A DNA stretch of 64,000 nucleotides from a virus (UHGV-1332848), one strand, 5' to 3'; counted from the stretch's first letter, positions 1,642 through 23,516 are shown. A program made the numbers and translations. Notes: generated by a model from the letters alone, not told the origin.

Positions 1642-2355
1642 ATGCAATACGTTGGAAGTAAAAATAGGTTATCTAAAGAGTTGATACCTATAATACAATC
1701 ATACATAAATGAAAACACAAAAGGTTATTTAGAGCCTTTTGTTGGTGGAGCAAATATAATAGATAAAATTAAATGTAATAACAAAATAGGATTCGATATA
1801 CACAAAGAGTTAATAGCATTACTTAAATATGTTTCAGAAGGAAAAGATTTGCCCAATACAATCACAAAAGAAGAGTATGATTATGTTAAAAATAATAGAG
1901 ATAAGTTTGAAGATTGGTATATAGGTTTAGTTGGTTTTTGTGGTAGTTATGGTGCAAAATATTTCGGTGGTTATGCTAAGGGTAATGATAAAAGAGATAG
2001 ACAAAATGAAGCCATAAGAAATTTAGCAAATCAGTCATATAATTTAAGAAACATATCTTTTATACATAGGGATTTTAGTGATATAGATAAAGATGAGTTT
2101 AAAAATTACGTTATATACTGTGATATACCTTATAAAGATACAACAAAATACAGTACAAAAGAATTTCCATATGAAGAATTTTATGAATGGGTAAAAGAAA
2201 TGTCAATACATAATACAGTGTTAATAAGTGAATATGATATGCCTGATGAGTTTGAGTGCATATGGTCAAAAGAACATAAGGTTAATTTTGATAGCAATAG
2301 AAATAACGCAGAAAAAAGAGTAGAAAAACTATTTACATACAATAAACAAATATAA
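1642..2355 (+). CDS. DNA N6-adenine methyltransferase, Dam/D12 class (orphan, no cognate endonuclease seen)
   Basis: N-terminal motif X (YVGSKNRL) and motif I (EPFVGGANI, FxGxG). C-terminal motif IV DPPY-like (CDIPY). The alpha-class order matches Dam-type MTases. Confidence 0.75.
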   Translation: MQYVGSKNRLSKELIPIIQSYINENTKGYLEPFVGGANIIDKIKCNNKIGFDIHKELIALLKYVSEGKDLPNTITKEEYDYVKNNRDKFEDWYIGLVGFCGSYGAKYFGGYAKGNDKRDRQNEAIRNLANQSYNLRNISFIHRDFSDIDKDEFKNYVIYCDIPYKDTTKYSTKEFPYEEFYEWVKEMSIHNTVLISEYDMPDEFECIWSKEHKVNFDSNRNNAEKRVEKLFTYNKQI

Positions 2356-7697: not shown

Positions 7698-8851
7698 ATG
7701 AAAGTTATTAAAAGAGACGGAACAGATGTAGATTTTCAAAAGGAGAAAATAGAAAATGCAATATTTAAAGCTATGAAAAATGGTAGTGGTGTAGTAAAGG
7801 AGAAGATTGCACAAAAGATATCAGAAGAAATACAACAATCTGCAATAAGTGTTCTATCAGTATCACAGATAGAAAAAATGGTTTATGATCTGTTAATTAA
7901 ATATAAACAAAAAGATACAGCTAGAGCATATGAGAGGTTCAGGGCAGTACAAGAATTTAAAAGAAATAATAATACAACAGACGAAAGTATACTAAGTCTT
8001 TTAAATAAAACTAATGAAGATGTTGCTAAAGAAAATTCCAATAAAAACTCAGTTATTGCGTCTACTCAAAGAGATTTGATAGCAGGTGAAGTTTCAAAAG
8101 ATATAGCAAAAAGAAAACTTATTCCAACACATATAGTTCAAGCACATGAAGAAGGGGCAATCCACTACCACGACCTAGATTATGCAATACAAAATATTTT
8201 CAATTGTTGTTTAATAAACCTACAAGACATGCTTGATAACGGGACGGTGATTAATGATAAATTAGTCGAATCACCAAAATCCTTTAGTACAGCATGTACA
8301 ATAACAACTCAAATAATGGCTCAAGTTGCAAGTAATCAGTACGGTGGACAAAGTATAACTATTGCACATTTAGCTCCTTATTTAAGAAGAACAAGAGACA
8401 AAGCATTTAAACATTATTATAATGACTTAGGCTTTGATGTTGAAACTTCTAATAAATTATCTAAAGATATAATGATGAAAGAACTTAAAGATGGTGTTCA
8501 GACTATAAGATATCAGCTTTCAACATTACAAACTACTAACGGTCAAGCTCCATTTGCAACTATTTACCTTGAAATTGATGAAGGTAATGAGTATGAGGAA
8601 GAAATGGCTTTGATTTGTGAAGAAATGATAAAGCAAAGATTAGAGGGCATGAAAAATTATAAAGGACAAGAAATAGGAGAGGCTTTCCCAAAACTTGTTT
8701 ATTTATTAGATGAACACAATTGTCTTGAAGGTGGAAAATATGACTACATAACTAAATTATCAGCTAAGTGTACAGCAAAAAGACTTGTTCCAGACTATCA
8801 GTCGGCAAAAATTATGAGAATGAATTATGAAGGAAATACTTTCCCACCGAT
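7698..8851 (+). CDS. nrdD: anaerobic ribonucleoside-triphosphate reductase NrdD, exon 1
   Basis: N-terminal ATP-cone (VIKRDGTDVDFQKEKIENAI); RBS AAGGGAGG. The ORF frame runs into a stop at 8858, just after the inferred 5' splice site (U8851). Confidence 0.75.
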
Positions 8852-9737
8852 AAACTAAAACTGTCGCATATAGTAGTGATATTATATGAAAACCCATCTA
8901 AACGGAGAAAGTCCTATATAAAGGATAACTCACCGTACTAAATTGTTGAATATTTAAAAATTAATTAAATAGGAGGTGTTATATTGTGGAAAGATATTCA
9001 AAATTGGGAAGATTTATATGAAGTTAGCGATACTGGGGAGGTTAGAAATAAATTATCCAATAATTTATTAGTTGGTGATATTAATAACGCAGGTTACTAT
9101 CGTGTATGTTTATATAATAAGAACCACATACCGCCAAAACAAAGGTTCTTTAGACATAGACTGGTGGCAAAACATTTTATAGATAACCATAAAAATCTAC
9201 CTCAAGTAAACCATATAGATGGTGATAAATCAAATAATTCGATGAATAACTTAGAATGGGTTAGCCCAAAAGAGAATGAAATACATAGTAGAAAAGTTAT
9301 TGGCGTAAAAGAATATAAACCATTTGCTGTAGTTTTTGATAATGGTAAAACCATTGTTTGTAATTCAAAATCAGAATTAAGCAATGAAATTGGGTTAACA
9401 AAAACTTCTATAAAAGAATGGTTGCATAAAGGTAACACCGGTTATTTAAAAAGAGGGATTAAAGATATATACTACATATAAAGTAAAAGTATTCAACATA
9501 AAAGTCTAAAGACTAACGAAAACAATTAATAGAGAAACACTATTAAGGGAATGAGTAGTGTAGAGCCACAAGCTTATGGTGGTAAGGCACGGGAGATAAG
9601 ACCTTTTAAATCGAAACGATGGGGCTCTTATCAATGGTAACAGTTGTAAGAGTGTGATATAGTCTAATATCTTATGGTAACATAAGGAAGTTCATAAGAG
9701 AACTGTACAACAGTTGCGATGTTGTATGAATATTATG
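8852..9737 (+). mobile_element. group I self-splicing intron interrupting nrdD, carrying a homing-endonuclease ORF
   Basis: Splicing U8851 to G9738 gives ...FPP-M-GCRSHVG...GRFNQGVISLNLPQIA. This matches, from memory, the conserved NrdD block (E. coli ...SPMGCRSFLG...GRNNLGVVSLNLPRIA). Intron ends in G (9737) and exon 1 ends in U. A structured GC-richer RNA segment lies at 9481-9737. Confidence 0.65.
8984..9481 (+). CDS. HNH homing endonuclease (NUMOD4 + HNH_3), intron-encoded
   Basis: NUMOD4-like WEDLYEVSDTGEVRN. HNH core VNHIDGDKSNNSMNNLEWVSPKEN. Own RBS AGGAGGTG. Confidence 0.85.
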   Translation: MWKDIQNWEDLYEVSDTGEVRNKLSNNLLVGDINNAGYYRVCLYNKNHIPPKQRFFRHRLVAKHFIDNHKNLPQVNHIDGDKSNNSMNNLEWVSPKENEIHSRKVIGVKEYKPFAVVFDNGKTIVCNSKSELSNEIGLTKTSIKEWLHKGNTGYLKRGIKDIYYI

Positions 9738-10701
9738 GGGATGTAGATCACATGTAGGATGTGGTTGGAAAGATGAAAATAACAACTATAAGTTTTACGG
9801 AAGATTTAATCAGGGTGTAATATCGTTGAATTTACCACAAATAGCAATTCTATCTAATGGAGATATTGAAACATTTTGGGATATACTTGACCAAAGATTA
9901 CAACTGTGTAAAGAAGCATTATTGGTTAGACATAATCATTTAATTGGAACTCTTTCAGATGTTTCACCTATTCATTGGCAACATGGAGCAATAGCCAGAC
10001 TAGATAAAGGAGAGAAGATAGATAAATTACTGCAAAATGGTTATTCTACACTTTCATTAGGGTATGTTGGTGTATGCGAGATGACATACGCTATGTTAGG
10101 TGTAAGTCATACGACACTTGAGGGTGAGAGGTTTGCTTTGGAAGTAATGAATCATATGAATGAAGCATGTCAAAAATGGAAAGATGAAACTGGATTAGGC
10201 TTCAGTCTATATGGCACTCCAGCAGAAAATTTAATATATAGATTTTGCAAACTAGACAAGCAAAGGTTCGGTAATATACCAAATGTAACAGATAAGTTAT
10301 ACTATACTAATTCTTATCATGTTCATGTTTGTGAAGAAATAGATGCATTTAGTAAATTAAAATTTGAATCTCAATTCCATAACATAAGCCTAGGTGGATG
10401 TATTTCTTATATAGAAGTTCCTGATATGAGCAAAAACTTAGATGCAATTGAACAAATTATAAACTTTATATATCACAATATACAATATGCAGAAATAAAT
10501 ACTAAACCAGATATCTGTTATAAATGTGGATTTACTGGTGAAATAAAGAATGATGATAACTTAGAATGGTATTGTCCTAATTGTGGCAATAGAGATGAGT
10601 CAGAAATGCAAGTAATGAGAAGAACTTGTGGTTATATAGGGACTAATTATTGGAATAAAGGAAGAACTGCTGAAATAAAAGATAGAGTAATTCATTTATA
10701 A
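9738..10701 (+). CDS. nrdD: anaerobic ribonucleoside-triphosphate reductase NrdD, exon 2
   Basis: Glycyl-radical motif RRTCGYIG near C-terminus; CPNCG zinc ribbon. The table ORF 9826-10701 is the in-frame tail of this exon. Confidence 0.75.
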
Positions 10702-10705
10702 GAAG

Positions 10706-11212
10706 GTGTTTTGTATGAATTATGCAGAAATTAAAAAGTTTGATATAGCTAATGCTCCAAAAGTTTGTTGTACAATATTTTTTAGTGGGTGTACTCATAA
10801 TTGCAAGGGATGCTTTAACAAAGAAGTACAAAATTTTAATTATGGAAAAGAATTTTCTAACGAGGTTATGAATTACTTCATAAGCAAAGCTAGTCATAAA
10901 CAGATTAAAAATATATGTATATTAGGAGGAGAACCGTTCCAGCAAGAAATTGATATAATGATTAATTTCCTTGAAAGGCTTAAAATTGAAGTTAAAAAAC
11001 CAATCTGGGTTTGGACGGGATATCTATACGAAGAGTTACTAAAAGACAGAAATAAAAATAGACTATTAAAATACATAGACGTTTTAATTGATGGTAGATT
11101 TGAATTGGATAAAAAAGATTTAAATTTAAGGTTTAGAGGTTCAAGTAATCAAAGAATTATAGATGTACAAAAAAGCCTTAAGCAAAATAGAATAATAGAA
11201 TTTTTATATTAA
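10706..11212 (+). CDS. nrdG: anaerobic RNR activating protein NrdG (radical SAM)
   Basis: CTHNCKGC radical-SAM cluster. Strong similarity to E. coli NrdG (FVSGCVHECPGC, IWVWTGY, RGSSNQ). Start may be MNYAEI. Confidence 0.85.
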   Translation: MFCMNYAEIKKFDIANAPKVCCTIFFSGCTHNCKGCFNKEVQNFNYGKEFSNEVMNYFISKASHKQIKNICILGGEPFQQEIDIMINFLERLKIEVKKPIWVWTGYLYEELLKDRNKNRLLKYIDVLIDGRFELDKKDLNLRFRGSSNQRIIDVQKSLKQNRIIEFLY

Positions 11213-11830: not shown

Positions 11831-12316
11831 ATGAAGATTAGAATTAAATACTTTAATAATGCAACAAAATTACAAAAGATTGAGAAAGGTAACTGGATAG
11901 ACCTATATGCAAATGAAGATGTTTTTGTACCACAAGGAGAAAAAGCAATGATTCCATTGGGAATAGCTTTAGAGTTACCTAAAGGCTGGGAGGCACATGT
12001 AGTCCCAAGATCAAGCACATTCAAAACATGGGGAATAATACAAACTAATCACATGGGCGTAATTGATGATACGTATATAGGAGATAATGATATGTGGTGG
12101 TTTCCAGCCTATTGTTTAAAAGGTAAGGAACATAAGGTAGAAACTGAACCTCACTCTACAACATATCCATTGGGAGTTAAAGGAACTTGGATTAGAAAAG
12201 GGGATAAAATTTGCCAATTTAGAATAATGGAAATTATGCCTGAAATAGAATTTGAAGAAGTAGAACATTTTGGCAATGTTGATCGTTCAGGATTTGGTTC
12301 TACGGGAGCTAGGTAA
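11831..12316 (+). CDS. dut: dUTP diphosphatase (trimeric dUTPase)
   Basis: Motifs [20 protein letters not shown] and C-terminal RSGFGSTG; resembles SPbeta-type phage dUTPases. Confidence 0.9.
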
Positions 12317-13203: not shown

Positions 13204-13380
13204 ATGATTGATGATGTTGATAGAAATAAACAATTTAAAAGCACAGTGAAGTATAATGGTTTGACTTATTTAGAAGATATTCTAAAAATCATAACAAACA
13301 TGTCAGATGAGGAGTTTATAGAATATATAGATGTGGTTATTAACAAAAATGATAATTGGAGGATTAAAAATGAAATATGA
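13204..13380 (+). CDS. small hypothetical protein (58 aa), not in ORF table
   Basis: ATG after GAGGA; ends overlapping the phosphatase start. Confidence 0.3.
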   Translation: MIDDVDRNKQFKSTVKYNGLTYLEDILKIITNMSDEEFIEYIDVVINKNDNWRIKNEI

Positions 13381-13939
13381 GATACAAATACTTAGCAAAG
13401 ATGAAATGACTTTGTTTTCAACTAAAGATTTAGCCAAAGATTATATTGTAATATCAATAAATGACACAGGATACAATACAGTAATTTATAAAAACAAACA
13501 TATAGTAGATAGGTTAAAGTTATGGTTTGACGATATTTTCTTAAAGGAACATGAAGATGAAGATTTAAAATTAATGATACCAACAGATGCACAAAAGATA
13601 AAGAATTTTATAGATACATATAAGAATAAAATAAATAATATTATAGTTCATTGTACTGCTGGAATAAGTAGAAGCGGAGCTGTAGGTTGTGCTTTATCTA
13701 GGTATTTAAATGGGGATGACGAATATTTATTAGCAACAGGAAAATACATCCCTAATAAACACGTTTATAAATTAATGTGTGAAGTATTGGGTTTAGATTA
13801 TTCAGAAGAAATGTTTAAAGAGAAGCTAAGGATAAGAAATAAAGGTAATAGAAGCAATTTAAAGGGTTACGGGGATTATGGTATAGATTTGAATGATATG
13901 TTTTGCGATGTGACAATAAAGGAGGATTTAAATGAGTAG
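13370..13939 (+). CDS. dual-specificity/tyrosine protein phosphatase (CX5R)
   Basis: Active-site signature HCTAGISRSG. Started at MKYEIQ (RBS GGAGGATTAAAA) rather than table start 13331. Confidence 0.7.
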   Translation: MKYEIQILSKDEMTLFSTKDLAKDYIVISINDTGYNTVIYKNKHIVDRLKLWFDDIFLKEHEDEDLKLMIPTDAQKIKNFIDTYKNKINNIIVHCTAGISRSGAVGCALSRYLNGDDEYLLATGKYIPNKHVYKLMCEVLGLDYSEEMFKEKLRIRNKGNRSNLKGYGDYGIDLNDMFCDVTIKEDLNE

Positions 13940-19074: not shown

Positions 19075-19115
19075 AATGTGGATTTCAATAATTAATTAAA
19101 GGAGTGGATTATAAA

Positions 19116-19706
19116 ATGACATGTGTGGTAGGAATGTTAGATAAAGAGAATAAAACAGTTTACTTGGGTGGAGATAGCTTAGGCTCAAATGGTTATATAA
19201 AGACAATTTATAAACAAAGAAAGGTTTTTCATTCAAAAGATACAAATGATTTAATTATAGGTATTTGTGGTTCTTTCAATTTTCAAGGGTTAGAATATGA
19301 AAAATTGCTAGATGAAACAAAATTATTGAAAGGCGAGATAGATAGAGAATATTTAATAACAAAGTTTATACCAAATTTAAGAAGAATAATATCGTCATAT
19401 AACTGTAACGAATCCAAAAGCGGGATAGATAGTATGGAAGGAGTTTTACTATTCGGATATAGAGATAATTTATTTATGATACAATCCGATTACTCGTTAG
19501 TGGAATCTACTGATGATTATTTGGCAATTGGTAGTGGGATGGATTACGCTTTAGGAAGTTTAGCAACAACTTATGATAATGAAATACCTATAATAGACAA
19601 AATACATATGGCTTTAAAGTCAGCTACAAAACATGTGGTAGGAGTTGAACCACCGTTCTACATAATAAATACAGCTAATGACGAAGTAATAGAATTGTTA
19701 GAATAA
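19116..19706 (+). CDS. HslV-like Ntn-hydrolase (proteasome-type peptidase homologue)
   Basis: Start at ATG 19116 (RBS AAAGGAGTGG) gives Met-Thr N-terminus (MTCVVGML), so Thr1 is exposed. Blocks VYLGGDSLGSNGYIKT...KQRKV and DYLAIGSGMDYALGSLA align with HslV VIAGDGQATLGNTVMKG...KVRRL and DLIAIGSGGPYAQAAARA. Confidence 0.6.
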   Translation: MTCVVGMLDKENKTVYLGGDSLGSNGYIKTIYKQRKVFHSKDTNDLIIGICGSFNFQGLEYEKLLDETKLLKGEIDREYLITKFIPNLRRIISSYNCNESKSGIDSMEGVLLFGYRDNLFMIQSDYSLVESTDDYLAIGSGMDYALGSLATTYDNEIPIIDKIHMALKSATKHVVGVEPPFYIINTANDEVIELLE

Positions 19707-20856: not shown

Positions 20857-21372
20857 ATGATTATGAATAAAAACAAAAAAATCTACATCGCAGGGAGTTT
20901 ATTTTCTGAAGCTGAGGTTGCACAAAGAATAAAGGAGGGAGAGTTGTTAAAAAAAGTTGGGTTTGAAAATATATATAATCCTATACAAGCCCCATGCAAT
21001 TCCAAGGAAGATTTGCCGACTGCTGAAGATATTTTCTGGGGAGACACAAAAGAAGTATTAGAATCAGAAATTGTAGTGATTGATATAAGTAACCCACTAG
21101 ATGCAGGAGTTTTTTGTGAAACTGGGATAGCTTGGGCTTGTAATTACATCCATAGGTTAGCTAATGAAGGTAAGAATTTAGATGAAGTTTTAAACATAAT
21201 GAAAGAAAAGATGGTAGTAGCACATCTATCTGATATAAGGAAATCGACATCACATAGATATAATGGCAACCATATTCCAGTAGGATTTAATCAATTTGCA
21301 GTAGCCTGTATTGAAGATGTTGGTGTTATAAAAGACAGTTTCAATGAAGTATTAGAAGAGTTAAATGATTAA
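20857..21372 (+). CDS. nucleoside 2-deoxyribosyltransferase-family protein (NDT / dNMP N-glycosidase-like)
   Basis: N-terminal IYIAGSLFSEAE block resembles the NDT/Rcl signature (IYLAGPFF). Size (~170 aa) fits the family. Confidence 0.55.
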   Translation: MIMNKNKKIYIAGSLFSEAEVAQRIKEGELLKKVGFENIYNPIQAPCNSKEDLPTAEDIFWGDTKEVLESEIVVIDISNPLDAGVFCETGIAWACNYIHRLANEGKNLDEVLNIMKEKMVVAHLSDIRKSTSHRYNGNHIPVGFNQFAVACIEDVGVIKDSFNEVLEELND

Positions 21373-21405
21373 TTTGTATCTATTGCGAAGAAAATGGAGG
21401 TAACT

Positions 21406-21684
21406 ATGGATTTAAAAATAAAAGATAAAGTTATATTCACTAATATGCAAAATGGAAATGAAGAAGTTGGAGAAATACAACTAATTGCACAAGTCACAGA
21501 TTGTGATACTACTGGAATAGTCGGTAAAAATGTTTATTATGTTAGAACTATAACGGGAGGACAACTATTTTTTAGGCAAAACTTAGAAAAATATACAGAA
21601 GGAGTTAAGGATCAATGTCCTTGTATGAAAGAGCCAAGCTATAATTGTGGCATGAAATGTTCAAGATGTGGAAGAGAATTGTAA
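21406..21684 (+). CDS. zinc-ribbon protein
   Basis: CPCM...CGMKCSRCG at C-terminus; RBS GGAGG. Confidence 0.45.
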   Translation: MDLKIKDKVIFTNMQNGNEEVGEIQLIAQVTDCDTTGIVGKNVYYVRTITGGQLFFRQNLEKYTEGVKDQCPCMKEPSYNCGMKCSRCGREL

Positions 21685-21729
21685 TTCGCAATTCAGAAAT
21701 AAGAATAAATTAGGGGAGGAAATGAAAAT

Positions 21730-22014
21730 ATGAATTTAGCAACATTATTTAGTACATTTCAATTAGTAGGAGGTGTAGTTCTGTTTATATCGTATTTACC
21801 GATGATTAAGTTGCTACACACTACAAAATCAGCTAAAAATCAAAGTATTAGTTTTTGGATCATATTAGATGTAGGAATGGTTTTATTTGAGTTAAATGCT
21901 CTATATTTAGCAATTACACTAGGACAACTATCATATGCAATAAGCCAATCATTAAATTTATTATGCGGTATTATTGTATTAATTCAATTATTAATTTATA
22001 GAAAGAATGATTAG
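21730..22014 (+). CDS. SemiSWEET / PQ-loop family 3-TM membrane protein
   Basis: 94 aa with three TM helices. TM1 has a PQ-loop-like motif (LFISYLPMIKLL) followed by TKSAKNQS loop, matching SemiSWEET 'lPQi.k..ktKs..g.S'. Confidence 0.55.
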   Translation: MNLATLFSTFQLVGGVVLFISYLPMIKLLHTTKSAKNQSISFWIILDVGMVLFELNALYLAITLGQLSYAISQSLNLLCGIIVLIQLLIYRKND

Positions 22015-22024
22015 GAGTAAGTGG

Positions 22025-22663
22025 ATGAAGAAATTAAAATTATTTATAGATATGGATGAGTGTATTTTCGACCTTTCAGATGCTATAAGATTAAGAGTAA
22101 ACAAAGACTTTAACAAAAATTATCCGAAGGGATTCAATAAATCTTATTGGTGGTCAGATTATGAAATACCAAAGAAATATTTTGAAAATTTACTAAATCA
22201 AAAAGGATTATTTTTAGATTTGCAACCATATGAATGTGCAATAGAAACATTAACTAAACTACATGAAGAAGGTTATGATATACATATTCTAACTTGCCCA
22301 CAGTACAATGAAACGTGTTTCATAGAAAAAGTATTGTCGGTTAAAAAATACTTACCATTCATAAATATAGAAACTAATTTTCATACAAGTGGCAATAAAG
22401 GTTTGTTTGCTAAAGAGAATAGAATATTAGTTGATGATAATCCAATTTACATAAACCAATTTAGAGACAATGGTGGCTATGCGATAGTATTCAATCAACC
22501 TTGGAATAAAGAATGTAATGATGCTAGGGCGTTTAATTGGAATGATGTTTATGAGTATATAAAATTATATGATGAAGTTTATAATTTTAATAATACAAAT
22601 GTAAAAGTTAATGTAGATATAAATAATTATAAAAAGTATATGGAAGGAGCTTATCATGAGTAG
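22025..22663 (+). CDS. 5'(3')-deoxyribonucleotidase (HAD superfamily, NT5C-like)
   Basis: HAD motif I LFIDMDECIFD (DxD); family size and downstream blocks match NT5C. Start taken at the second ATG (RBS AGGAG). Confidence 0.7.
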   Translation: MKKLKLFIDMDECIFDLSDAIRLRVNKDFNKNYPKGFNKSYWWSDYEIPKKYFENLLNQKGLFLDLQPYECAIETLTKLHEEGYDIHILTCPQYNETCFIEKVLSVKKYLPFINIETNFHTSGNKGLFAKENRILVDDNPIYINQFRDNGGYAIVFNQPWNKECNDARAFNWNDVYEYIKLYDEVYNFNNTNVKVNVDINNYKKYMEGAYHE

Positions 22664-23273
22664 TAAATTATATTTCAAGTATGGCTGTATGAACTCAAGT
22701 AAATCATTAAATCTTTTAGCAACAGCTCATAACTATGAATCACAGGGTAAAAAAGTATTGCTAATAAAACCAACTTTAGATACAAGGACAGACAAAGGAA
22801 TTATTGAAAGTAGAGTAGGTATTTCTAAAAAATGTATTGATGTAGATAAGGATACTAACTTAATAAATTTATTTAAAATGCATATAAAGTATAATGATTT
22901 AATACATTGTATTTTGATTGATGAAGCACAATTCTTAACGAAAGATCAGGTAAAACAATTAGCAAAAATAGTTGATACATACGATATTCCAGTTCTTTGT
23001 TATGGTCTTAAAAACAGTTATATCGAATCTGAATTGTTTGAAGGAAGTCAAGCACTTTTATACTACGCAGACAAGTTGGAAGAAATTAAAACAACTTGCT
23101 TTTGTGAGGGATGTAATTCAAAGGCTACAATGAATCTTAGGATATTAAATGGTGAAGCCGTATATAACGGAGAAATGATTAATTGCGGAGATACCAAACC
23201 AACAAGCGATTATTATATGCCAGTATGTAGAAAACATTATTACAATCAAATAGGTTATTATAATCTTAAATAA
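22656..23273 (+). CDS. tdk: thymidine kinase
   Basis: P-loop YFKYGCMNSSKS; IHCILIDEAQFLT; DIPVLCYGLKNSYIESELFEGSQALL; VCRKHY. Near-colinear with E. coli Tdk. Confidence 0.9.
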   Translation: MSSKLYFKYGCMNSSKSLNLLATAHNYESQGKKVLLIKPTLDTRTDKGIIESRVGISKKCIDVDKDTNLINLFKMHIKYNDLIHCILIDEAQFLTKDQVKQLAKIVDTYDIPVLCYGLKNSYIESELFEGSQALLYYADKLEEIKTTCFCEGCNSKATMNLRILNGEAVYNGEMINCGDTKPTSDYYMPVCRKHYYNQIGYYNLK

Positions 23274-23384: not shown

Positions 23385-23428
23385 AAAAAATAGGGGATAT
23401 ACACTCAAATTAATGAATATATATCCCC
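23385..23428 (-). terminator. rho-independent terminator (minus strand)
   Basis: 9-bp GC-containing stem GGGGATATA/TATATCCCC followed on the minus strand by a U-rich tract. Confidence 0.45.
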
Positions 23429-23472
23429 TAAATTAAAAATGATAATTTACATATACTAATAGATTTAATACA

Positions 23473-23516
23473 GAAAGGAGTGAGTTTTACATGCAGGTGA
23501 CTCACTCCTTTCTTTT
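23473..23516 (+). terminator. rho-independent terminator (plus strand) closing the early arm
   Basis: 12-bp stem GAAAGGAGTGAG/CTCACTCCTTTC followed by TTTT. Confidence 0.5.

Follow-up and report, generated by a model that had tools for sequence, protein, structure and literature searches.

In Lactobacillus-type deoxynucleoside salvage, deoxynucleosides are taken up, their base is swapped by a nucleoside 2-deoxyribosyltransferase (NDT) and the product is phosphorylated by a kinase, the pathway being regulated by NrdR. The carrier predicted for deoxynucleosides in these bacteria is PnuN, which belongs to the Pnu (PnuC-like) family (PMC7749635). Here we analyze a 64,000-nucleotide stretch of DNA from the virus UHGV-1332848 (hereafter the window), in which five consecutive + strand open reading frames (ORFs) at 20857-23273, of 171, 96, 94, 218 and 205 amino acids (aa), encode an NDT, a small Cys-rich protein, a SemiSWEET-fold membrane protein, an NT5C-type 5'(3')-deoxyribonucleotidase of the haloacid dehalogenase (HAD) type and a thymidine kinase (TK). 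We consider it probable that this is a cassette for deoxynucleoside or nucleobase salvage, in which the SemiSWEET serves the NDT, TK and NT5C as a uniporter of deoxynucleosides and/or bases. A first-pass annotation, made by a model from the sequence, had read the locus as an operon for deoxynucleoside salvage or base exchange; the five ORFs lie where it placed them, its four enzyme and carrier identities are borne out below, and its interpretation is supported in part, the salvage reading included. The Lactobacillus system is cellular and its PnuN has about seven transmembrane (TM) helices, whereas the window system is phage-borne, includes an NT5C and has a three-TM carrier.

Two other systems share the logic of the cassette. 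In the well-established case of PnuC and NadR, facilitated diffusion through a SWEET-like carrier is combined with trapping by a cytoplasmic kinase; the substrate and the enzymes differ, and NadR, Nampt and NMNAT are absent from the window system. The mammalian substrate cycle of NT5C (dNT-1), TK1 and an equilibrative nucleoside transporter contains the same three activities, two of them from families shared with the phage (PF06941 and PF00265), and this cycle of nucleotidase, kinase and passive carrier can set the size of the deoxynucleoside triphosphate (dNTP) pool. Its transporter belongs to a family unrelated to the phage carrier, and the phage adds an NDT.

The nearest phage counterpart is the cluster of uracil permease (NCS2 family), NDT and TK in phages c-st and D-1873, whose NDT and TK are 39-50% and 52-53% identical to those of the window. 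As in the window, a transporter, an NDT and a TK lie in one co-directional block. The transporter of c-st and D-1873 is a 395-aa NCS2 nucleobase permease and that of the window a 94-aa SemiSWEET, and an NT5C, present in the window, was not seen in the c-st and D-1873 clusters. The cluster is present in annotations; our literature search turned up no paper in which it is considered a module. The carrier itself is most similar to the SemiSWEET uniporters TySemiSWEET (4RNG), LbSemiSWEET (4QNC) and EcSemiSWEET (4X5M), with which it shares a length of about 90-100 aa, a three-helix bundle and the conserved TM1 Pro of the PQ motif and TM3 Asn. To our knowledge, the physiological roles of bacterial SemiSWEETs are poorly defined, with weak sugar transport reported for only a few. 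The genomic partners of the window protein are deoxynucleoside enzymes rather than sugar genes, which implies a different substrate class. Literature searches for SemiSWEET or PQ-loop proteins together with deoxyribosyltransferases, deoxynucleosides or phage nucleosides gave no relevant paper, in keeping with the first-pass view that the combination of SemiSWEET and salvage genes is undescribed. We therefore rate the pathway type, deoxynucleoside salvage, as known and the carrier family as one with no earlier tie to nucleosides or bases.

One sign that the carrier belongs with the salvage enzymes is a natural gene fusion. In the 287-aa protein P0061, a PQ-loop domain (residues 11-61) is followed by an NDT domain (PF05014, residues 123-239) that carries the NDT motifs of the window, SLFS and D-[SA]-G-V-x-C-E-x-G. 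The NDT forms the C-terminal half of the fusion, and the positive-inside pattern of the window SemiSWEET suggests that its C-terminus is cytoplasmic. Separate NDT and SemiSWEET-like genes also recur as neighbors, and ten or more lineages of phages, from Clostridium, Geobacillus, Sporosarcina, Staphylococcus and metagenomes, have the two side by side. For example, the two genes are adjacent or one gene apart in the Clostridium sporogenes CS29/phi8074-B1 group, in Geobacillus phage GR1 and Sporosarcina phage Lietuvens, in the Staphylococcus phages Terranova and PMBT8, and in the metagenomic contigs L005, L012 and L013. Elsewhere kinase genes lie beside the SemiSWEET gene, as in L009, where the gene order is TK-x-deoxynucleoside kinase (dNK)-SemiSWEET, and in further lineages an NT5C-like HAD gene overlaps it. 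The related locus L025 (NDT 56% identical) reads NDT-NT5C-(449 aa)-SemiSWEET-TK and thus keeps all four genes without the Cys-rich gene. Searches for related loci with single proteins returned L025 or nothing.

We then took a census that was blind to gene neighborhood. A degenerate DNA motif (YxPQIxxxxKTK) was used to scan IMG/VR, yielding 79 loci with a true SemiSWEET-like ORF, which fall into 22 clusters at 60% identity. Counting these loci together with the SemiSWEET loci found earlier, the commonest families encoded within 2 kb on the same strand are, as lower bounds, NDT (18 loci), TK (13), an NT5C-like HAD phosphatase (11) and dNK (8). Per 100 kb there are 15.2 partners within 2 kb, 0 between 2 and 5 kb and 2.9 between 5 and 15 kb. 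When cellular genomes were scanned with this motif, 26 SemiSWEET-like loci were obtained, all of them lacking a partner, so that a partner lies within 2 kb at 28 of the 79 viral and 0 of the 26 cellular loci (Fisher p = 9e-5). The genomic coupling of SemiSWEET-like genes to those for NDT, TK, dNK and NT5C-like proteins is strong, repeated and phage-specific.

A further line of evidence comes from loci in which the carrier differs within similar surroundings. In L021 and L022 (NDT 66% identical), the order is NrdD-NrdG...NDT-x-NT5C-Xan_ur_permease (NCS2)-TK-x-dUTPase. L031, L061 and L119 match C. botulinum phage D-1873 with 95% identity in the NDT and 94% in the TK and have syntenic flanks, with the SemiSWEET gene in the exact slot that D-1873 gives to two small ORFs and the uracil permease. 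Likewise, the SemiSWEET gene of L110, whose NDT is 87% identical to that of c-st, lies in the permease slot. Judged by gene order, SemiSWEETs and NCS2 permeases of the uracil/xanthine type exchange slot for slot, a case of non-orthologous displacement. Because of the fusion, the recurrent adjacency, the enrichment over the cellular control, the conservation of the gene set and the displacement by NCS2 permeases, we regard the SemiSWEET as part of the module, as the first-pass annotation had suggested, and not as a chance neighbor. The link is widespread in phages of Firmicutes.

These observations bear on the view that the SemiSWEET is unrelated to the genes around it and is a sugar carrier, a holin or a superinfection-exclusion protein in the early block. 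The solved SemiSWEETs are described as sugar carriers in their PDB titles, about two thirds of the sampled phage SemiSWEET loci lack a nucleoside-metabolism partner within 2 kb, and the window protein gets no direct family assignment. An unrelated carrier is nevertheless hard to square with an NDT fusion, with a sharp distance-dependent enrichment, with the count of zero among the cellular loci, or with slot-for-slot exchange with nucleobase permeases between flanks that are 87-95% identical. Together with the protein features given below (a Phe at a Trp position of a sugar SemiSWEET, and neither holin matches in PHROGs nor a lysis-cassette location), this makes an unrelated role quite unlikely in our judgment.

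Several further arrangements were seen among the related loci. The NDT-adjoining membrane proteins of Terranova (Terranova_047; L018 3465-4100) and PMBT8 (L019 3492-4082) are about 200 aa long and each matches two SemiSWEET repeats with a hidden Markov model (HMM); these phage-encoded proteins are duplicated and SWEET-like. ORFs of about this length in the IMG/VR loci L036, L042, L052, L054, L088 and L094 are also hit by the SemiSWEET HMM. Directly upstream of the double SemiSWEET of PMBT8 lies QDF14358.1 (L019 2770-3489), annotated as hypothetical, which matches the NDT HMM at 3.6e-17. Tandem SemiSWEET-like genes, which might form a heterodimeric carrier, are found at L069 6323-6906 and L077 565-1148. 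In an IMG/VR cluster (L033, L037, L047, L056, L057, L065, L072, L081, L082, L102 and L108), the carrier gene comes after one for a 190-aa HAD phosphatase that has the motif TDCDGVLL and a weak, sub-cut-off match to NT5C over its full length (PF06941, 6e-4); in L072 the two genes overlap.

The assignment of the 94-aa protein rests on predicted structure and on profiles of its relatives. An AlphaFold2 (AF2) model built with 16 homologs has a mean predicted local distance difference test score (pLDDT) of 90.4 and helices at residues 3-32, 40-64 and 67-93, and its top 14 Foldseek matches in the PDB are all SemiSWEETs or SWEETs (TM-score 0.75-0.84, root-mean-square deviation 1.8 A). A profile search of 1.8 billion cluster representatives recovered 160 relatives, mostly of 85-110 aa. 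Searched against the PDB at E<=10, the family profile has just two matches, the SemiSWEETs 4rng and 9kax, both in register (E 0.01 and 0.058). PF04193 is matched by 74 of 80 sampled relatives (E<=0.01) and PF03083 by 11. The expected membership in these two Pfam families is thus not seen directly in the window protein and holds transitively, through its relatives and its fold. By modeled fold and by family profile, then, the protein is a predicted SemiSWEET, and the fold would imply a homodimer. Whether it groups with PQ-loop proteins or with holins had been set beforehand as a test of the first-pass reading, and both lines of evidence place it with the former. A holin identity was rejected: the only PHROG matches are phrog_25992 and phrog_2642, both of unassigned function, and no lysis cassette surrounds the gene, whose neighbors serve nucleotide metabolism. 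At the position of the TM2 Trp of the sugar SemiSWEET 4rng, the aligned window protein has Phe53, which hints at a different pocket, and another Trp, W43, is invariant. Lys and Arg residues are concentrated in loop 1 and at the C-terminus, a pattern consistent with an N-out/C-in topology. A tblastn search with the window protein matched only Sporosarcina phage Lietuvens, and other SemiSWEET queries recovered more phages.

The NDT of the window exceeds the PF05014 cut-off (38.2 bits against 28.8) and matches phrog_1817 at 6.9e-34. EfPDT, a purine deoxyribosyltransferase, is its best relative in the PDB by both sequence and fold (7M5H; phmmer 3.2e-6), and the top Foldseek matches of its AF2 model (pLDDT 91) are 7m5h, DNPH1, 7o62, 2a0k and CtNDT. 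The N-terminal motif AGSLFSEAE resembles AGPLFSQAD of EfPDT, and Y10, D63, D82, E88 and N145 (171-aa numbering) align with the catalytic residues of EfPDT, Tyr5, Asp60, Asp80, Glu86 and Asn130 (PMC12372993). All five are invariant in homolog alignments. The NLM motif of NDTs reads NQF in the window protein, with Phe as the third residue. By its motifs the protein looks catalytically competent and would be a transferase. We also considered a dNMP (deoxynucleoside monophosphate) N-glycosidase of the DNPH1/Rcl type and found it less well supported: no DNPH1 chain is matched by sequence at E<=1, and the DNPH1 fold match is weaker than that of EfPDT (E 5.8e-3 versus 1e-4).

The remaining two enzymes are also identified by family models. 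The NT5C scores 66.2 bits with PF06941 (against 24.8) over profile positions 4-174 of 180, matches phrog_2643 at 2e-21, and shows HAD motif I as DMDEC and motif IV as VDDN. The TK scores 126 bits with PF00265 and 217 against 195 with the NCBIfam equivalog NF003300, matches phrog_592 at 6.6e-68, and has the DEAQF motif and two Cys pairs for zinc. Its Walker A motif reads GCMNSSKS, with Ser in place of Gly ahead of the Lys. A change of this Gly to Ser or Ala is common to several phage TKs, those of c-st and D-1873 included, and we accordingly rejected the idea that the Ser marks an inactive kinase. Both NT5C and TK look competent, their motifs being intact. Each enzyme of the cassette is an ordinary member of its own family.

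The Cys-rich protein is a different matter. It had been counted as a zinc-ribbon member of the set, and with its C-terminal CxC...CxxC cluster a putative zinc ribbon is plausible. It has no match in Pfam, PHROGs, NCBIfam or the PDB. None of the related loci encodes a homolog, and a counterpart is lacking from the modules of L025, L021 and L031. Its inclusion in the set is therefore not upheld by conservation, and it is an accessory gene. The proteins that lie between NDT and SemiSWEET in other phages were considered as homologs and proved to be unrelated small proteins. In the 262-aa protein P0094, a PQ-loop domain is fused to weak zinc-ribbon-like matches (Zn_Ribbon_TF, 20.5 bits against 29 and so below the cut-off); the arrangement is reminiscent of the window, though homology to the window Cys-rich protein was not detected by sequence.

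Based on these data, we propose the following mechanism. The 94-aa protein would dimerize to form a small uniporter through which deoxynucleosides and/or free bases follow their gradient across the host membrane. Within the host, the NDT, which needs a deoxynucleoside donor and a base acceptor, would shift deoxyribose from whichever deoxynucleoside is at hand onto the base that is needed. NT5C would convert dNMPs, for example those from degraded host DNA, to deoxynucleoside donors for the NDT, and TK would phosphorylate thymidine or deoxyuridine, thereby trapping the product and driving net uptake and flux to dTTP. As the carrier substrate we slightly favor a deoxynucleoside over a nucleobase, because a deoxynucleoside is the sole metabolite common to the NDT, TK/dNK and NT5C partners. 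The exchange with NCS2 permeases speaks for a nucleobase, and since the NDT uses both a deoxynucleoside and a base, either type of carrier could feed the same reaction.

We infer that the direction of transport is import. NCS2 permeases are proton-coupled importers, and their exchange with the SemiSWEET, like the frequent pairing of SemiSWEETs with the nucleoside-trapping kinases TK and dNK, argues against a valve that vents surplus deoxynucleosides made by NT5C, or free bases released by the NDT, after breakdown of host DNA. So does the presence of NrdDG and dUTPase genes, with which the phage invests in making dNTPs rather than in discarding their precursors. Such a valve would have parallels in phage T5, which dephosphorylates and excretes the breakdown products of host DNA, and in the export side of the mammalian cycle formed by NT5C, TK1 and the equilibrative nucleoside transporter. 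Moreover, a uniporter-type carrier, as the fold match to SemiSWEETs suggests, should work both ways, the window NT5C gene comes immediately after that of the SemiSWEET, and in one large SemiSWEET cluster the sole partner is an NT5C-like HAD phosphatase, a producer and not a consumer of nucleosides. On this evidence we judge an efflux role to be unlikely.

The incorporation of a non-canonical base, raised in the first-pass annotation, would require that an imported or phage-made base be loaded with deoxyribose by the NDT and passed through TK into phage DNA. NDTs as a family are promiscuous base exchangers, and here the module includes a transporter and has two small unassigned proteins nearby. 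An association of NDT with 2,6-diaminopurine phages has been described (10.1101/2025.10.22.683976). A scan of + strand ORFs in the 64-kb window, which covers about half of a roughly 137-kb genome, found no gene for PurZ, DatZ, a dCMP/dUMP hydroxymethylase, DpdA or the 7-deazaguanine pathway, or thymidylate synthase. The dUTPase argues against DNA containing dU, and the TK is an ordinary Tdk equivalog. The ORFs scanned thus give this option no positive evidence, and we consider it very unlikely. If it were nonetheless true, the phage SemiSWEET would import a base or nucleoside not produced by the host, and base exchange fed by this transporter would lead to non-canonical DNA.

A role in pyridine nucleoside metabolism is also conceivable, since PnuC, whose fold is SWEET-like, transports a vitamin that resembles a nucleoside. 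Among NAD-cleaving effectors there are NDT-fold domains, for instance the NDT-like effectors of retrons, which we note as a lead. In such a scheme the carrier would import nicotinamide riboside (NR), and the NDT-fold enzyme would act on NR, nicotinamide mononucleotide (NMN) or NAD to counter an NAD-depleting defense. Although the SemiSWEET gene of phage vB_BcoS-136 lies about 3 kb from a ribose-phosphate pyrophosphokinase-like gene, the recurrent partners of SemiSWEETs are TK, dNK, NT5C, ribonucleotide reductase and dUTPase, not Nampt, NMNAT or NadR. In the window NDT the catalytic set of a deoxyribosyltransferase is complete, and the solved structure nearest to it is that of a purine deoxyribosyltransferase. 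We regard a pyridine pathway as extremely improbable.

A number of points weigh against the salvage cassette that we favor. The case for it is built wholly from comparative genomics. A partner lies within 2 kb in only 8 of the 22 clusters (28 of the 79 loci), the partner HMMs were built from few sequences, many viral loci are incomplete, and the cellular control is small at 26 loci. No partner is found in L004, in vB_BcoS-136 or in the AAA5/VWA clade L006/L007/L010/L011. The window SemiSWEET itself has no direct match in Pfam (E<=1, a spurious DUF6264 aside) or in NCBIfam, NF037968 included, and it reads PM rather than PQ, with Pro24 retained (SYLPMI); PQ is retained in the 76%-identical homolog P0015 (SYLPQI) and in 105 of 120 relatives. 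NCS2 permeases carry bases and not nucleosides, and contexts with only dNK or TK point to nucleosides. NT5C and TK in one operon could form a futile cycle unless their specificities differ. Lastly, most of the phage-metagenome NDTs assayed in a 2025 preprint gave no purine transglycosylation (10.1101/2025.10.22.683976), and transferase activity cannot be assumed for this reason.

Because several phage lineages have no partner, the SemiSWEET family is not uniformly tied to the pathway, and it is probably not uniform in function. In SemiSWEET loci devoid of a recognized NDT (L004, L006-L011), a custom HMM detected no cryptic copy either. In the clade L006/L007/L010/L011, the gene order is AAA_5 - VWA/CobT_C - x - x - SemiSWEET - N6/N4 methyltransferase. 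A DUF7768 protein is encoded about 4 kb downstream in three of these loci (L006 8997-9518, L010 9095-9622 and L011 8694-9221) and not in L007. DUF7768 was tried as an NDT-like protein and rejected, the hhalign probability of 0.8% not being significant; the aligned stretch is the catalytic D-G...E region. In Bacillus phage vB_BcoS-136 (L016, 113713-121475), the SemiSWEET gene lies among genes for RNA ligase, polynucleotide kinase, ClpP and DNA ligase, with no NDT neighbor and with the ribose-phosphate pyrophosphokinase-like gene about 3 kb off, a context in which some members of the family may have another role.

With these points taken into account, we lean somewhat toward viewing the proteins described here as the first SemiSWEET/PQ-loop subfamily with a nucleobase or deoxynucleoside as its physiological substrate, forming a membrane-attached salvage unit with NDT. 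The coupling to salvage genes offers a concrete, testable substrate hypothesis for a minimal carrier fold. It suggests that phages of Firmicutes, including Staphylococcus Herelleviridae and the toxin phages of C. botulinum, commonly encode uptake of DNA precursors, which bears on phage dNTP supply in nutrient- or DNA-rich habitats such as the gut and may bear on escape from nucleotide-depleting defenses. If the proposal is correct, a 94-aa nucleoside or base carrier combined with an NDT would be useful for nucleoside-analogue biocatalysis.

The features of the window are collected in Table 1. The DNA is AT-rich, with about 28% GC, and is divided into a + strand early and metabolic block that runs to about 23.3 kb and a - strand structural block beyond it.

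Table 1. Coordinates of the salvage cassette and of other features in the window.
Feature	Coordinates	Strand	Remarks
NDT (PF05014)	20857..21372	+	likely true start 20863, 169 aa
Small Cys-rich protein, 92-96 aa	21394..21684	+	C-terminal CPC...C...CxxC; likely start 21406
Predicted SemiSWEET-fold (PQ-loop family) membrane carrier, 94 aa, three TM helices	21730..22014	+	
NT5C-type HAD 5'(3')-deoxyribonucleotidase	22007..22663	+	likely start 22025
Thymidine kinase, TK1/Tdk type	22656..23273	+	
Putative terminator, hairpin and U-rich tail	~23472..23513	+	closes + block after TK
NrdD, split	7698-8858 and 9826-10701	+	
NrdG	10706-11212	+	
dUTPase	11831-12316	+	
Methyltransferase	1642-2355		

The five genes had been described as overlap-coupled, which holds in part. 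Gaps of 21 nt and 45 nt separate the Cys-rich gene from the NDT and SemiSWEET genes, respectively, and the ORFs as called have two 8-nt overlaps downstream. That between NT5C and TK is the sole firm one; the overlap between SemiSWEET and NT5C vanishes if NT5C starts at the better-placed ATG 22025, which has an AGGAG ribosome-binding site 7 nt ahead of it. The placement of ribosome-binding sites favors downstream starts for the Cys-rich protein (21406) and the NDT (20863) as well, and we judge all three starts likely on this ground. For the NDT, an AAGGAGA site is positioned for the ATG at 20863, and the resulting 169 aa is the length of the database homolog P0203.

TK is the final gene of the + strand block and is followed by a strong hairpin (dG -23 kcal/mol, z -5.1), which none of 200 shuffled sequences matched in RNA folding and which a consensus terminator scan had overlooked on account of the size of its loop. 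The - strand has a terminator of its own, with a 17-bp stem, at 23430-23391, so that transcription appears to converge at the strand switch (23391-23513). With 44 matches where 43.6 were expected, a scan for the promoter consensus is uninformative in DNA this rich in AT. A search of the whole window for riboswitches and introns gave zero Rfam matches at the gathering threshold, and no match to the region emerged when 50,697 phage records were searched by megablast, so that no sequenced isolate is close to this phage at the DNA level. The nearest database copies of the window NDT and SemiSWEET are on a ~137-kb contig labelled Clostridium sp.

Upstream on the same strand, 9-13 kb from the cassette, lie the NrdD, NrdG and dUTPase genes, as the first-pass annotation had noted. 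The two parts of nrdD correspond to phrog_487 positions 4-376 and 420-712. No group I or II intron was found in the gap between them at the Rfam gathering threshold, and a permissive scan gave none that is credible; the gap contains an HNH endonuclease ORF (8984-9481). The early block also encodes a dual-specificity protein phosphatase-like protein (13331-13939; PF00782, 2e-9) and an HslV-like peptidase (19104-19706; phrog_1040, 1.5e-20, with a weak Proteasome match).

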